From the IMG/VR virus record IMGVR_UViG_3300025684_000011: a stretch of DNA of 64,000 bases, one strand, 5' to 3'. This stretch comes from a virus. The notes under the pieces are model-generated. The model ran no database searches. It was given only the letters and a program-made list of their open reading frames with translations, and was not told the origin of the DNA. Each line of letters opens with the position of its first letter. The stretch's first letter is position 1. Both the position numbers and the translations under genes were made by a program. Positions 45,149 through 51,491 of this stretch are shown here, piece by piece.

Positions 45149-45176
45149 GTACCCTCCTTCGGGAGGGTACCTTTTT
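45149..45176 (+). terminator. Rho-independent terminator with cUUCGg tetraloop
   Basis: GTACCCTCC-TTCG-GGAGGGTAC-CTTTTT. Confidence 0.92.
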
Positions 45177-45195: not shown

Positions 45196-45224
45196 TTGAC
45201 TTTTAAGTCGTTTGAAAGTATACT
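45196..45224 (+). promoter_or_regulatory. Sigma70-type promoter; uvsW ATG at predicted +1
   Basis: TTGACT-17nt-TATACT-6nt-ATG. Confidence 0.8.
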
Positions 45225-45230
45225 ATTAAT

Positions 45231-46685
45231 ATGTCAGGAATATGTACATTAGAAATAAGAGATGAGGTAAACGTTCGTTTTCACGAGCTATCGCCGAGTA
45301 CTCGACGATCGTGTGAAGCAAAATTAAAATATATGTTGCCTTATGCATATCATGTACCAGCCTACAGGCTAGGAAGATGGGATGGTAAGATTGGATTTTT
45401 TACAGCCGCTGGATCAACGTATTTGAATTTGCTTGATCGAGTTTTACCTATATTAGATAACGAAGGCTGGAGTGTTGAGCTTGTTGATAACAGAATTAAA
45501 CATAGTTTCGAGTTTGAGCAAGTTACCGAAGACACTTTTTCTGGCATTACTTGGCCTAAAGGACATGTTGCAGAAGGACAATCTATTAAACTTAGAGATT
45601 ACCAGATAGAATGTATTAATAGGTTCCTTGCTAACCCGCATGGTGTACAAGAAATAGCAACAGGTGCAGGTAAGACATTAATGACAGCCGCATTGAGCTT
45701 AATGTGCGAGCCTTACGGTAGAACGTTGGTAATTGTACCTAACAAAGATTTAGTTAAGCAGACTCAAGAAGATTATATTAATTTAGGTTTAGATGTTGGT
45801 GTATTTTTTGGTGATGAAAAGGATGCAAATCATAAACATGTTATTGCTACATGGCAAAGCATAAATTCTTTAATTAAAAGATATAAAGATGGTAAGAGTA
45901 ATGTTAGTATTGATATCTTAACAGATGATTTAATTTGTGTTATGGTAGACGAAGTACACATGGCAAAAGCAGATGTACTTCGTACAATGCTAACAGGTCC
46001 TTTTGCAAATATTCCTATTAGGTGGGGTTTAACAGGTACAATACCTAAAGAAGAACACGAATATATTAGTTTAATTTGTAGCCTAGGTGGAGTATTACAT
46101 AGGCTACAGGCAAGCGAACTACAAGATAAAGGTGTTCTGTCAAATTGCAATGTTAAGATATTGCAATATCAAGATAGTGTTGAATATAATAACTATCAAG
46201 AAGAACTGTCGTTTCTTACTACTAACAAGGAACGTATGACAGAGATAGCAAAGAAGATGGATACGATTAGTGATACAGGAAATACGTTGATATTAGTAGA
46301 TCGGATTAAAACAGGTCAGATGCTAGAAGAAATGCTACCTGATTGTGTATTTGTATCTGGATCAATGAAAAGTAAAGATCGTAAAGCAGAATATAATGAA
46401 GTGCAGACACTAGACAATAAGATTATTGTTGCAACATACGGAGTTGCAAGTGTAGGCATTAATATACCTCGTATTTTTAACCTAGTATTAGTAGAACCGG
46501 GTAAGAGCTTTGTAAGAACTATTCAAAGTATAGGTAGAGGTATAAGAAAAGCAGAAGACAAGGACTTTGTACAGATATGGGATATTACTAGCAATGCAAA
46601 GTTCTCAAAAAGGCATCTAGGAAAACGAAAGAAGTTTTACGACGAAGCAAATTACCCACACGAAACACAGAAGGTAAAATATTAA
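45231..46685 (+). CDS. uvsW: SF2 DNA helicase UvsW
   Basis: LRDYQ, ATGAGKT, DEVH, GLTGT, GINIP.I and QSIGRG.R motifs. Confidence 0.92.
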   Translation: MSGICTLEIRDEVNVRFHELSPSTRRSCEAKLKYMLPYAYHVPAYRLGRWDGKIGFFTAAGSTYLNLLDRVLPILDNEGWSVELVDNRIKHSFEFEQVTEDTFSGITWPKGHVAEGQSIKLRDYQIECINRFLANPHGVQEIATGAGKTLMTAALSLMCEPYGRTLVIVPNKDLVKQTQEDYINLGLDVGVFFGDEKDANHKHVIATWQSINSLIKRYKDGKSNVSIDILTDDLICVMVDEVHMAKADVLRTMLTGPFANIPIRWGLTGTIPKEEHEYISLICSLGGVLHRLQASELQDKGVLSNCNVKILQYQDSVEYNNYQEELSFLTTNKERMTEIAKKMDTISDTGNTLILVDRIKTGQMLEEMLPDCVFVSGSMKSKDRKAEYNEVQTLDNKIIVATYGVASVGINIPRIFNLVLVEPGKSFVRTIQSIGRGIRKAEDKDFVQIWDITSNAKFSKRHLGKRKKFYDEANYPHETQKVKY

Positions 46686-47191
46686 TGAACATTTTAACAG
46701 TAGACAATGAAACATATGATTTAGATAGACTTCCAACTGAAGTAGACGGAGATTTAAGGTATAGTGTATTAGATTATAGCAATGCCCAGGATGTAGACTA
46801 TCTCTTTATACCTTTGGTATTCTTAGAAAGTTTTTCTTGCCCAGCCGCCGTGCTAAGGATTGGAGAAGCTGAAATTAAAATGCCATTAGACTGGAGTCTA
46901 ATTATAGGAGAACCAGATCACGGAGAACCTGAGATTGTAAATATAATGAGTTTGAATGACAGAGGCTTTAATGCATTTGAGTTTAATCCAGTAACTGGGT
47001 ATAAGGCAAATTGGGTTCCGGTAGAAATTGTAAATGTATACCAAGAAGTAAAATGGTATGTTCCTAAATTAAAGTTTGGTCATATTTTGACTGTACCATT
47101 GAACTCTGGTAAAGGATCTCCTTGTACATTTTTTCTCAAAGAGTCAACAAAGGTTCCTGAAGTACTTGACCTTAACAAGATTTGGTTTTAA
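46685..47191 (+). CDS. Hypothetical beta-rich protein
   Basis: 168 aa ORF coupled (TAATG) to uvsW. Confidence 0.75.
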   Translation: MNILTVDNETYDLDRLPTEVDGDLRYSVLDYSNAQDVDYLFIPLVFLESFSCPAAVLRIGEAEIKMPLDWSLIIGEPDHGEPEIVNIMSLNDRGFNAFEFNPVTGYKANWVPVEIVNVYQEVKWYVPKLKFGHILTVPLNSGKGSPCTFFLKESTKVPEVLDLNKIWF

Positions 47192-47199
47192 ATAGTATT

Positions 47200-47685
47200 A
47201 TGCCAGCAAAGAAAAAAGCATCAGCAGTACATAAAGTTAATATACATGAGATAATGAATGCAATTGATTATCGTAATGGCAATTATTATACTGACTTAGA
47301 TGATGAAAGTAAGAAGTCTGTTAGTACATATATGGCACAACGTTGGGCGAGCCAGGTACAAGGATCGCAAGAAATACAGGAACATTACTTGCTAATGGTT
47401 AACGATTTAAGCAATATTGATTATATTGCAACTACTAGCGGACATGAAGAATTACGTTATAGAGTTTTAGCATTAATTGGATTAGGACAAAAACTAAGGC
47501 ATGAATTTGTTCCGCCTAAAGGAGCAAAAAAAGATAAACTCAGAGAATGGCTTTTAGAGTTATTGCCTCATTGTAATGATGACGAGGTAGAATTGTTTAG
47601 AGAAATTAACGACTCATCGGTTCTACAGGATATTGCAACGGCTAAAAACACGTCAGATAAAAAGTTAAAGGATTTGTTTAAATAA
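47200..47685 (+). CDS. Hypothetical protein, possibly clamp-loader small subunit (gp62-like)
   Basis: Size and Y..QRW.S..helical pattern loosely recall gp62-type subunits; replication context; function call is weak. Confidence 0.4.
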   Translation: MPAKKKASAVHKVNIHEIMNAIDYRNGNYYTDLDDESKKSVSTYMAQRWASQVQGSQEIQEHYLLMVNDLSNIDYIATTSGHEELRYRVLALIGLGQKLRHEFVPPKGAKKDKLREWLLELLPHCNDDEVELFREINDSSVLQDIATAKNTSDKKLKDLFK

Positions 47686-47687
47686 GC

Positions 47688-48359
47688 ATGGGAAACGAAT
47701 ATCAGTGTAAATACTGTATGAAGAAGTTTGCTAGGGAACGTACTCTATCAAGCCATATGTGTGAAAAGAAAAGAAGGTGGATGTCAATAGATGAACCTTC
47801 ATCTAGAATTGCTTTTCAAGTTTGGTACGACTTCATGAAGTATGTTGCTCCACAAACAAAGAAAGAAAGAAGCACAGACGATTTTATTCGTAGCCCAGAT
47901 TATATAGGTTTTGTAAAGTTTGCTAATTACATTATAGAACTTAGACCCAATGAAACAAATAAATTTATTAAATGGTTGTTTAAGCATAGTGTTAAACTTA
48001 GCAACTGGAATAAGAGAGAAACGTATTCTCTTTATATACAAGAAAGTAGTAAGACAGAAACGGTTGAACGAGCAGTAGAACGCATGGTGTTGTTAATGAA
48101 GTCATGGAGCGAAGAAACCGGAAATTCTTGGGAACAATACTTCCAGGAGGTACCAACAGCAACAGCCGTGAACTCGATAGTCATGGGAAGAATTAGTCCT
48201 TGGATCATATATTCGTCTAAGTCTGCACAAGATTTATTAGATAGAATGGAACCAGGACAATTAGAGACGATAACAGGGAGCATAGACACAGAATGGTGGA
48301 CAAGAAAAATCCAAAAGAGCCAGACGGAAGTGACTTGGTGCAACAAAATTCTAAATTAA
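47688..48359 (+). CDS. Protein with N-terminal C2HC/C2H2-type zinc finger
   Basis: YQCKYCMKKF..E.TL..HMC. Confidence 0.7.
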   Translation: MGNEYQCKYCMKKFARERTLSSHMCEKKRRWMSIDEPSSRIAFQVWYDFMKYVAPQTKKERSTDDFIRSPDYIGFVKFANYIIELRPNETNKFIKWLFKHSVKLSNWNKRETYSLYIQESSKTETVERAVERMVLLMKSWSEETGNSWEQYFQEVPTATAVNSIVMGRISPWIIYSSKSAQDLLDRMEPGQLETITGSIDTEWWTRKIQKSQTEVTWCNKILN

Positions 48360-48502
48360 AACAACATGTTGATAATTTAGAAAAATTAGAAAATAGAATT
48401 ATGCTTTTTGACGAAAAACTTACTATGTTGACACAAGAAATGATTGATATGAAGAACAGGCAAGAAGAACTAATACAGATTATTAAGCAGGGACTAAGAT
48501 GA
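48293..48502 (+). CDS. Small coiled-coil protein
   Basis: Heptad pattern; ATGA overlap with the mini-DnaE start. Confidence 0.55.
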   Translation: MVDKKNPKEPDGSDLVQQNSKLKQHVDNLEKLENRIMLFDEKLTMLTQEMIDMKNRQEELIQIIKQGLR

Positions 48503-49083
48503 GTAGGCCAGACGTAGATATTGACTTTGGTAATCGAGAGGAATTATTGCATATACTAAATGGAGTTCCTGCAATGATTTCTACTAACCAAGGTGCAACT
48601 AAACATAAGACTGGAGTATACTTTCATCCAGTTTCAGTTGATCCATTCACTGGTTGGTGTAACCTAGATCATAAAAAAGCAGAAGATGTAGGGTTCTTTA
48701 AGCTAGACTTACTTAATGTAAGTTTTTATTCTAAAGTAAAAGATAAAGAACAGTTAGATAAATTAATTGCTAAGGAGCCTATTTGGGAGTTATTAACACA
48801 TGATGATTTTTCTAGTCAGCTCTTGCATGTCAACGGACACGGAGATATACTTCGTGCAACAACTCCAACTTCTATTGAACAATTAGCCGCAGTATTAGCA
48901 ATGATACGTCCTGCAAAACGTTATCTTATAAACAAGAATTGGGATACTATAATGAAAGAGGTTTGGGTAAAACCTAAAACTAATGAATATTTCTTTAAGA
49001 AATCTCATGCAACAGCCTATGCTATTATGATTGTAGCACAGATGAATCTACTATGCGAAGAACTAACTAATCCATCTTCTTAA
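48499..49083 (+). CDS. Miniature DNA polymerase III alpha (DnaE)-like nucleotidyltransferase core
   Basis: PDVDIDF, KHKTGVY, GFFKLDLL, LAAVLAMIRP and YFFKKSHATAY in DnaE order within 194 aa. Confidence 0.85.
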   Translation: MSRPDVDIDFGNREELLHILNGVPAMISTNQGATKHKTGVYFHPVSVDPFTGWCNLDHKKAEDVGFFKLDLLNVSFYSKVKDKEQLDKLIAKEPIWELLTHDDFSSQLLHVNGHGDILRATTPTSIEQLAAVLAMIRPAKRYLINKNWDTIMKEVWVKPKTNEYFFKKSHATAYAIMIVAQMNLLCEELTNPSS

Positions 49084-49441
49084 CAAGACTAATTTGACGT
49101 CTTTTAGTTCTTTTTACAATTACATTTTCTAAACTAGTTAAATGTCCAGCCAACATTTCAAAATCTTTGGTGGCATATGTTTGTAAGCAATATGAAAAGT
49201 TTTTCATTGTAGTTCTAAGAACAATATTAATTGGTAGTAACCGATTACTTCCCCACCACCATTCTTCACCTGCTTCAATAAATGCTAATTTCTCTTCTGA
49301 TGTTTTTAAAAGGTCATACCGGTATACTGTAACAACAGTATTATCGCTATTTTGTATGATTCCGACAATTTCCTTATCTGCATAGCGAACTAAACTCATA
49401 AAAGGAAATTCTTCTAAAAATTGCTGTATTTTTGTATCCAT
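49067..49441 (-). CDS. Hypothetical protein
   Basis: 124 aa from ATG 49441 (MDTKIQQFLEEFPF...EEWWWGSNRLLPIN); minus-strand TAAATA at 49453-49458. Confidence 0.7.
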   Translation of the reverse strand: MDTKIQQFLEEFPFMSLVRYADKEIVGIIQNSDNTVVTVYRYDLLKTSEEKLAFIEAGEEWWWGSNRLLPINIVLRTTMKNFSYCLQTYATKDFEMLAGHLTSLENVIVKRTKRRQISLVKKMD

Positions 49442-50311: not shown

Positions 50312-50500
50312 ATGAAATTTAAAAAACGTGAATTAACAGACCTCGAGAACCGTCTGGTGGCTTTAGCTACGATACCTACATCTTTAGGAATATATTATCT
50401 ATTTCTTTTGTATATAATACCTTGGTTGTATGAACAATGGCCTATATTACAACATTACTTTTCAATGAAAATAGATCAAAACGGAATACATTTCTCTTGA
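50312..50500 (+). CDS. Small membrane protein
   Basis: 62 aa with one hydrophobic helix. Confidence 0.5.
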   Translation: MKFKKRELTDLENRLVALATIPTSLGIYYLFLLYIIPWLYEQWPILQHYFSMKIDQNGIHFS

Positions 50501-50525
50501 CATTCACCCAATAATATACTATAAT
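50497..50525 (+). promoter_or_regulatory. Consensus sigma70 promoter; primase ATG at predicted +1
   Basis: TTGACA-17nt-TATAAT-6nt-ATG. Confidence 0.85.
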
Positions 50526-50531
50526 AGTATT

Positions 50532-51491
50532 ATGAATGTTGTAGAGTCTACACTCCGAGGTAATCTTCCTCCTTTAAAAACAAATAGTAGCGGTTGGCTG
50601 ACTATGAATTGTCCTATGTGCATTCACAACGGAGAAAGCCGTCCTGATTCAAAAGGAAGAGGCGGTTGGCGTTTTGATAATGACAAAACAGCATACCATT
50701 GTTTTAACTGTGGGTATACAACTGGTTGGCGACCTGGAAGTAAGTTAGGTTTCAAGTTAATTAAGTTGATGCGAATATTAGGCATTGACGAAGCTGAAAT
50801 ACAACGACTTAAAATTTTGTTATGGGATCAAGTTATTGAGGAAGTAGCAGAAGAAGAACAAGAAGTGTTTAATAAGGAATGGCCAGAAATTCCATATCCT
50901 TTTGAACTAACAGATTTAAGAGACGAGGCTGTTGAGTACCTAACAGGTAGAGGTATATTTGAATTAGCAAAGTGGGAGCAAACAGATCAAATAGGAATGA
51001 AACAACGTATTATTTTACCTTATACAGATAATTCAAAAGTAGTTGGTTATATGGCACGTTGGATAGGCGATCCTCCTAAAGGAACTGCTAAGATGTTAAG
51101 AAAGTCTCCAGATGAATTTGTTTTTAACTTAGATAAGCAACCAAAGAAACGTAAATATACAATAGTATGCGAAGGTGAATATGATGCCTTAGCAATAGGC
51201 GGTGTTGCTATACTATCTAATAAAATTAGCAAATATCAAGCACAACTAATTGAGGATTTAGATACAGAACCGGTAATGTTAGCAGACAAAGATCCAGGTG
51301 GTAAGTCGTTAGTTGAAGATGCAATTAACTTAGGATGGAATGTTAGTTTCCCAGACTGGCCAGCAGGAATAAAAGATGCAAATGAGGCAATATTGCATTT
51401 TGGAAGAGTAGCAACCTTGCAAAGTATATTAATGGCGATTGAACACTCGCCTTTGAAGGTTAAATTATTAATGAGGAGATGGTGTGTATAG
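50532..51491 (+). CDS. DNA primase (T4 gp61-like)
   Basis: Zn ribbon CPMC...HCFNCG; TOPRIM CEGEYDA and ADKD; KDANE. Confidence 0.9.
   Translation: MNVVESTLRGNLPPLKTNSSGWLTMNCPMCIHNGESRPDSKGRGGWRFDNDKTAYHCFNCGYTTGWRPGSKLGFKLIKLMRILGIDEAEIQRLKILLWDQVIEEVAEEEQEVFNKEWPEIPYPFELTDLRDEAVEYLTGRGIFELAKWEQTDQIGMKQRIILPYTDNSKVVGYMARWIGDPPKGTAKMLRKSPDEFVFNLDKQPKKRKYTIVCEGEYDALAIGGVAILSNKISKYQAQLIEDLDTEPVMLADKDPGGKSLVEDAINLGWNVSFPDWPAGIKDANEAILHFGRVATLQSILMAIEHSPLKVKLLMRRWCV

Follow-up and report, generated by a model that had tools for sequence, protein, structure and literature searches.

The window, a 64-kb stretch (64,000 nucleotides) of IMG/VR record IMGVR_UViG_3300025684_000011, is a segment of a myovirus genome with portal, sheath, terminase and fibre genes. 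It also contains a T4-like replication and recombination set, comprising a gp32-like SSB, UvsX, UvsW, a primase, a DnaB-like helicase and RNR. The ORF of interest encodes a 194-aa protein from this uncultured marine giant-phage lineage and closes a conserved block of genes that starts with uvsW. The features of the block, in their order along the DNA, are as follows.

45149-45170: terminator-like hairpin upstream of uvsW
45196..45224, plus strand: sigma-70-like promoter, TTGACT-17-TATACT (consensus match only)
45231..46685, plus strand: UvsW-like helicase, the first gene of the block
46685..47191, plus strand: 168-aa conserved protein, phrog_11279; syntenic in PAC2/PA5oct and RaK2
47182..47685, plus strand: 167-aa conserved helical protein, phrog_11758; syntenic in PAC2 and RaK2, with a start near 47200 (161 aa) in the gene calls of close relatives
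47688..48359, plus strand: 223-aa conserved protein, phrog_11058; C2H2-type zinc finger at the N-terminus (Pfam zf-C2H2_2, below cut-off at E = 5.7e-4)
48293..48502, plus strand: small coiled-coil-like ORF, 54-69 aa
48499..49083, plus strand: probable C-terminal unit (C-unit) of a split minimal Pol III alpha, the Mg2+-binding and template-binding part; 194 aa, ATG start, TAA stop
49067..49441, minus strand: convergent 124-aa ORF, phrog_11637

The promoter lies just after the hairpin and is the probable start of a transcription unit that extends from uvsW to the C-unit gene; no terminator-like site was found between this promoter and the end of the C-unit gene. A perfect consensus sigma-70 promoter (TTGACA-17-TATAAT, 12 of 12 positions) is also present on the plus strand at 50497-50525, just upstream of the primase gene at 50532. 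The block from uvsW to the C-unit gene has homologous, syntenic counterparts in PAC2/PA5oct, RaK2 and Phosso, and the convergent 124-aa ORF keeps its position in Phosso, PAC2 and RaK2. The zinc-finger gene is located directly upstream of the C-unit gene in the window and in PAC2, with at least one short ORF between the two in RaK2 and Phosso, and its product is a candidate accessory DNA-binding partner of the C-unit. In RaK2, a DnaQ-like "DNA polymerase exonuclease subunit" gene (ORF117, L003:730-1551) is found immediately upstream of uvsW; a counterpart was not found in the 64-kb window. According to the Atu_ph07 paper, RaK2-like phages have a conserved gene that resembles Pol III epsilon. 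A family B polymerase (PolB) gene was not found within the 64-kb window; PolB is present in all five relatives examined, as the original prediction had expected of phages of this kind.

The ORF is real, and its boundaries are clean. Its ATG overlaps the stop codon of the upstream 69-aa ORF (ATGA), it ends with TAA, and its last 17 nucleotides are overlapped by the convergent minus-strand ORF, so the coupled start and stop described earlier are present. All five sequence motifs first read from the translation are found in the predicted order: PDVDIDF (residues 4-10), KHKTGVY (35-41), FKLDLL (67-72), LAMIRP (133-138) and YFFKKSHATAY (164-174). Their spacing had been put at about 25 residues throughout; this holds for three of the four gaps (24-25 residues) but not for that between FKLDLL and LAMIRP, which is 60 residues long. 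Residues D7 and D9 are equated with D401 and D403 of Escherichia coli DnaE, and K68 and D70 with K553 and D555. Further conserved residues are H36 and G39, R137 and P138, and K167 and H170.

The domains described as missing are indeed absent. The C-unit aligns to E. coli residues 398-784 only, which leaves out the PHP, clamp-binding and OB regions as well as the C-terminal tau-binding domain, and Pfam returned zero matches, even at E = 10. The RGS motif is also missing; the ORF begins at the equivalent of E. coli residue 398.

The C-unit belongs to a large family of uniform length. It matches the 197-position profile phrog_11778, "DNA polymerase", from end to end (E = 4.7e-59). A tblastn search returned 96 records of cultured phages, all RaK2-like jumbo phages with 37-47% identity, and 95 of these matches cover at least 80% of the C-unit length. 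A metagenomic collection of 5.8 billion proteins contains 6481 homologues, and the best 120 of the 6481 are almost all 191-199 aa long. Clustering at 50% gave 545 representatives; the full-length proteins among the 150 listed are mostly 185-216 aa. A 96%-identical gene was found on an ENA scaffold, and the contigs that carry it reach about 300 kb. Comparison with seven close relatives (proteins 86-98% identical) gave a dN/dS of 0.05-0.085, which speaks against decay.

Residue conservation was counted over 99 full-length diverse representatives that are 27-51% identical to the window C-unit. Loss of the catalytic aspartates is rare: D7 is kept in 97 of 97 sequences, D9 in 95 of 98 and D70 in 99 of 99. 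The neighbouring carboxylate D5 (97/97) and the lysine K68 (99/99) are also kept, and H36, G39, R137, P138 and H170 are each present in at least 95 of the 99 proteins. The ORF is therefore a conserved, selected, stand-alone gene for a protein of about 190 aa.

These data bear on the explanation that the protein is either a remnant without catalytic activity, retained for a different function (DNA binding or scaffolding, for instance), or a decaying dnaE pseudogene fragment. The strong reduction relative to cellular DnaE would be in keeping with such a remnant, as would a literature search that found no demonstrated activity. However, conservation peaks exactly at the catalytic residues, dN/dS is low, and there are thousands of homologues of the same length with clean ends. 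A frameshifted piece of a longer dnaE was also looked for; the flanking frames contain no dnaE-like sequence, and the neighbours are unrelated conserved genes. Because of the homologue lengths, the dN/dS values and the conservation of the catalytic residues, a decaying fragment or silent remnant is very unlikely, in agreement with the original reading of the ORF as an intact gene.

The likeness to DnaE appears weak but specific when judged from sequence alone. A single-sequence phmmer search of the PDB gave as its top match a peptide-binding protein (E = 0.2), which is irrelevant. The profile of the C-unit family, searched against the PDB, matched only Pol III alpha chains, in four collinear segments (E = 0.4-0.8) that pair PDVDIDF with E. 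coli residues 400-406, FKLDLL with 553-558, AMIRP with 637-641 and FKKSH with 755-760. Residues 32-140 were placed by hhalign on E. coli 507-642 (E = 0.0064, probability 6%), and weak matches to PF17657 (DNA_pol3_finger) were found in 12 of 30 family members. The window C-unit itself matches phrog_405, the profile of full-length phage Pol III alpha, weakly (E = 0.0023) and at the finger motif.

The predicted structure is more decisive. The AlphaFold2 model of the C-unit has a pLDDT of 91.3 and a pTM of 0.81. Each of the best 15 matches in a Foldseek search of the PDB was a Pol III alpha or PolC chain (E from 1.4e-4), and only noise ranked below them. With VIA-align, 186-192 of the 194 residues were aligned to C-family chains (Z 9.8-6.3, rmsd 3.3-4.1 Å), covering residues 459-841 of Thermus aquaticus Pol III alpha, 417-811 of Mycobacterium tuberculosis DnaE1, 398-784 of E. 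coli alpha and 968-1307 of PolC. The Z-scores were 9.7-9.8 for T. aquaticus and 8.9 for E. coli, and only 3.8 for the next unrelated chain. The model thus superposes on Pol III alpha and PolC only, and its predicted fold is that of the second half of the DnaE palm together with the core of the fingers. The proposed DnaE equivalences go beyond chance, given the profile matches in the PDB, the phrog_11778 match and the specificity of the structural match for the C family.

Within this fold, about 387 E. coli residues (398-784) are compressed into 194. The thumb, which in E. coli occupies about 105 residues between PDFDVDF and KHAGGV, corresponds to a 24-residue β-hairpin, and only 25 residues, instead of about 110, separate the IRP and KSH finger motifs. 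K68, the lysine of the palm, is kept, as are IRPxK and FKKSHxxAY in the fingers. The protein was first described as a polymerase core with an intact catalytic triad. The triad part of this description stands, as D7, D9 and D70 are present and conserved; the ORF alone does not, however, hold all catalytic elements of such a core, because the GS motif is missing.

The missing elements are encoded by a separate gene in related phages. When whole phage records were searched with the phrog_405 profile, two separate ORFs per genome were found in Sinorhizobium phage Phosso, Pseudomonas phage PAC2, Klebsiella phage RaK2 and two long IMG/VR contigs. One is the C-unit ORF, which in these relatives matches phrog_405 positions 577-686 and 774-809. 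The other, here called the N-unit, is 165-180 aa long (about 166) and matches positions 357-436. The N-unit gene is located 30-220 kb from the C-unit gene in all five sufficiently complete relatives.

The N-unit carries the sequence GVGRGSS and matches PF07733 above cut-off (E = 1.2e-12). Its C-terminal end reads ...WGVGRGSSVASYVL.LIG.H......Y.L...EFLR-stop and is aligned by hhalign to E. coli residues 347-392 (E = 1e-5). The N-unit ends at the equivalent of FERFL, exactly where the C-unit begins with PDVDIDF; because the break falls between FERFL and PDxDxDF, the split point lies within the palm. Residues 1-75 of the N-unit (L071:1228-1452; residues 1-79 of the fused protein P0301 described below) have no DnaE counterpart by Pfam or hhalign; they are folded with low confidence (pLDDT 45-57) and occupy the place where PHP joins the palm in DnaE. 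The genes directly 3' of the N-unit gene in two unrelated contigs (L071:1741-2076 and L072:1747-2238) share an N-terminal motif, ..GK.VD...L......AVGN..VNARGD.

The N-unit family has at least 7996 members, and those listed are almost all 161-171 aa long. Among cultured phages, the genera that have one half also have the other, in nearly equal numbers (C-unit/N-unit: Escherichia 34/34, Pseudomonas 11/11, Salmonella 8/8, Erwinia 8/8, Xanthomonas 4/4, Yersinia 4/4 and Klebsiella 11/10). An N-unit-like ORF was not found in the 64-kb window, where no RGS-bearing ORF resembles DnaE or the N-unit. Nor was one found in the three nearest records, including G001, in which PF07733 has no match; all three records are fragments, and their lack of an N-unit is therefore uninformative. 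By analogy with its relatives, the window phage presumably encodes an N-unit partner in its own genome.

The two halves are also found joined. One protein among the representatives, P0301 (375 aa), consists of an N-unit, a 10-residue linker and a C-unit, in the order of DnaE. Residues 27-180 are 38% identical to the N-unit (E = 4e-28), residues 191-370 are 36% identical to the window C-unit (E = 4e-38), and the match to PF07733 runs unbroken across the junction (residues 97-207). P0301 is known from a single 2.4-kb contig (L087), in which a small convergent ORF is found at the 3' end, as in the window. A search for longer C-unit homologues returned only P0391 (350 aa, from a 2-kb ENA contig), in which an unrelated N-terminal part of 230 residues precedes the last two thirds of a C-unit without PDxDxDF. 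It was rejected as a fusion and is probably an assembly chimera; alternatively, it could be a domain-shuffled variant.

P0301 was folded with a checked alignment of seven N-units and seven C-units. The best AlphaFold2 model has a pLDDT of 78 and a pTM of 0.73 and is confident over residues 80-375; the four remaining models are poor (57-64). The best model superposes on the ternary complex of T. aquaticus Pol III alpha (chain residues 292-830) with a Z-score of 20.7 and an rmsd of 3.2 Å for 288 residues. It also matches M. tuberculosis DnaE1 (Z 20.4), Geobacillus kaustophilus PolC (Z 20.0) and residues 271-773 of E. coli alpha (Z 14-15), and the next matches are template-independent Pol-beta-like transferases with Z-scores of 3.0 or less. 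As predicted by AlphaFold2, which was trained on DnaE structures, P0301 matches a complete DnaE palm and finger core. Addition of the N-unit doubles the Z-score (9.8 to 20.7), as expected if both halves rebuild one palm.

Such doubling speaks against the notion that the 194-aa protein is self-sufficient as a minimal polymerase or nucleotidyltransferase core. The three carboxylates and K68 are all present and conserved in the C-unit, and the chain on its own gives a confident predicted fold (pLDDT 91), as a self-sufficient enzyme would require. However, the elements that bind the incoming triphosphate in DnaE are missing from the C-unit, namely the GS motif and the initial helix-strand-helix of the Pol-beta-like fold. 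Moreover, a complementary N-unit is found in every sufficiently complete relative, and a natural fusion of the two exists. Independent function of the C-unit is thus highly improbable, and, for want of a GS motif, the C-unit alone is expected to have little or no activity.

Taken together, the ORF at 48499..49083 very probably encodes the C-terminal part of the "minimal DNA polymerase III alpha" that group 2.2 (RaK2-like) jumbo phages make in two pieces. The original prediction had offered, as one of its options, a split enzyme with its RGS half encoded elsewhere; this option is supported by the separate GVGRGSS ORF in five of five sufficiently complete relatives and by the natural fusion, and for the window phage it follows by inference from these relatives. 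The reading itself is already known. Iyer, Anantharaman, Krishnan, Burroughs and Aravind (2021, Viruses 13:63, PMC7824862) described from sequence a minimal, phage-specific Pol III alpha of the group 2.2 jumbo phages. In their account it consists of two proteins, an N-terminal one that binds NTP and a C-terminal one that binds Mg2+ and the template; distant genes encode the two, and PolB accompanies them. The contribution of the window is only one new marine member of this family.

In the two-piece enzyme, the N-unit (about 166 aa) would supply the missing first half of the palm as a helix, the GVGRGSS nucleotide-triphosphate-binding loop and a second helix. The GS loop and its flanking helices may dock on the C-unit sheet that bears D7, D9 and D70, so that the docked halves would complete a single two-metal, Pol-beta-like nucleotidyltransferase site, with the template probably held by the C-unit finger motifs. 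The assembled enzyme, of about 360 aa, would be a non-proofreading, clamp-independent, thumbless and probably distributive DNA polymerase that acts beside the family B replicase. Its most likely role would be short-patch synthesis in recombination-dependent replication or repair, because the C-unit gene closes the conserved uvsW-led block near the genes for UvsX, the gp32-like SSB, the primase and the helicase. A literature search found no biochemical or genetic bench test of either half.

Templated synthesis by such an enzyme is not assured, because little of the thumb is left and the fingers are shortened between IRP and KSH. The halves could instead assemble into an enzyme that is not a template-directed DNA polymerase, namely a nucleotidyltransferase that makes primers, tails ends, uses NTPs or produces signal nucleotides. 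The reduction of the thumb to a hairpin and of the IRP-KSH stretch to 25 residues would suit such an enzyme, as would the lack of proofreading, clamp and OB modules and the full PolB already owned by the phage relatives. After the C-family chains, the structures nearest to the fused model are template-independent Pol-beta-like nucleotidyltransferases, but with Z-scores of 3.0 or less they fit far worse than the DNA-bound Pol III alpha and PolC structures (Z about 20). Furthermore, IRPxK and FKKSHxxAY are near-invariant, and according to Iyer et al. (2021, PMC7824862) these finger motifs of DnaE bind the template DNA; the C-unit gene also lies within a DNA replication and recombination block. 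A non-templated enzyme is, on balance, unlikely.

The stronger proposal is that the two separate halves form an active minimal C-family polymerase of about 360 aa, without thumb, PHP, clamp or OB elements. It would serve as the second polymerase of a T4-like replisome, possibly aided by the co-transcribed zinc-finger and helical proteins. This is put forward tentatively, as a possibility somewhat short of an even chance. If true, no smaller C-family polymerase would be known, and the enzyme would be a working model of the catalytic module ancestral to Pol III. Reconstitution of an active enzyme from the halves would define the minimal requirements of C-family catalysis, establish a second polymerase for T4-like replisomes and provide a compact, naturally split polymerase for protein engineering. 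Among versions of the bacterial replicative polymerase fold, this family would be the smallest, with a natural cut within the active-site domain. It is also very common in environmental giant phages: the protein collection contains more than 6000 C-units and roughly 8000 N-units.

The closest known counterparts are the C-units of the group 2.2 phages (phrog_11778), such as RaK2 ORF124, the "DNA polymerase III alpha" of PA5oct/PAC2 and Phosso gp437, with which the window C-unit shares family, length and motifs. The neighbourhood is also common to both, with the uvsW block upstream and a convergent small ORF, a virion protein, the primase and the DnaB-like helicase downstream. In this comparison, which covers the window segment only, the window C-unit is at most 47% identical to that of any cultured group 2.2 phage.

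With bacterial DnaE and PolC (E. coli 2HNH, T. aquaticus 3E0D, M. tuberculosis 5LEW and G. kaustophilus PolC 3F2C), the C-unit shares, according to its model, the Pol-beta-like palm, and D401, D403, D555, K553 and the finger motifs of DnaE all have equivalents in it. In contrast to the 1160-aa DnaE, the C-unit has about 194 aa, the palm is divided between two genes, the fingers are cut down and the thumb is a hairpin. The GS (RGS) motif is not in the same polypeptide, and the PHP domain, clamp-binding motif, OB fold and tau-binding domain of DnaE and PolC are absent. The group 3.2 jumbo phages (e.g. Bacillus phage G; phrog_405) likewise encode a C-family polymerase of their own. Their Pol III alpha is a single chain of about 1200 aa with a PHP domain and serves as the sole replicase, whereas the kind found in the window is minimal and split, and is accompanied in its relatives by PolB.
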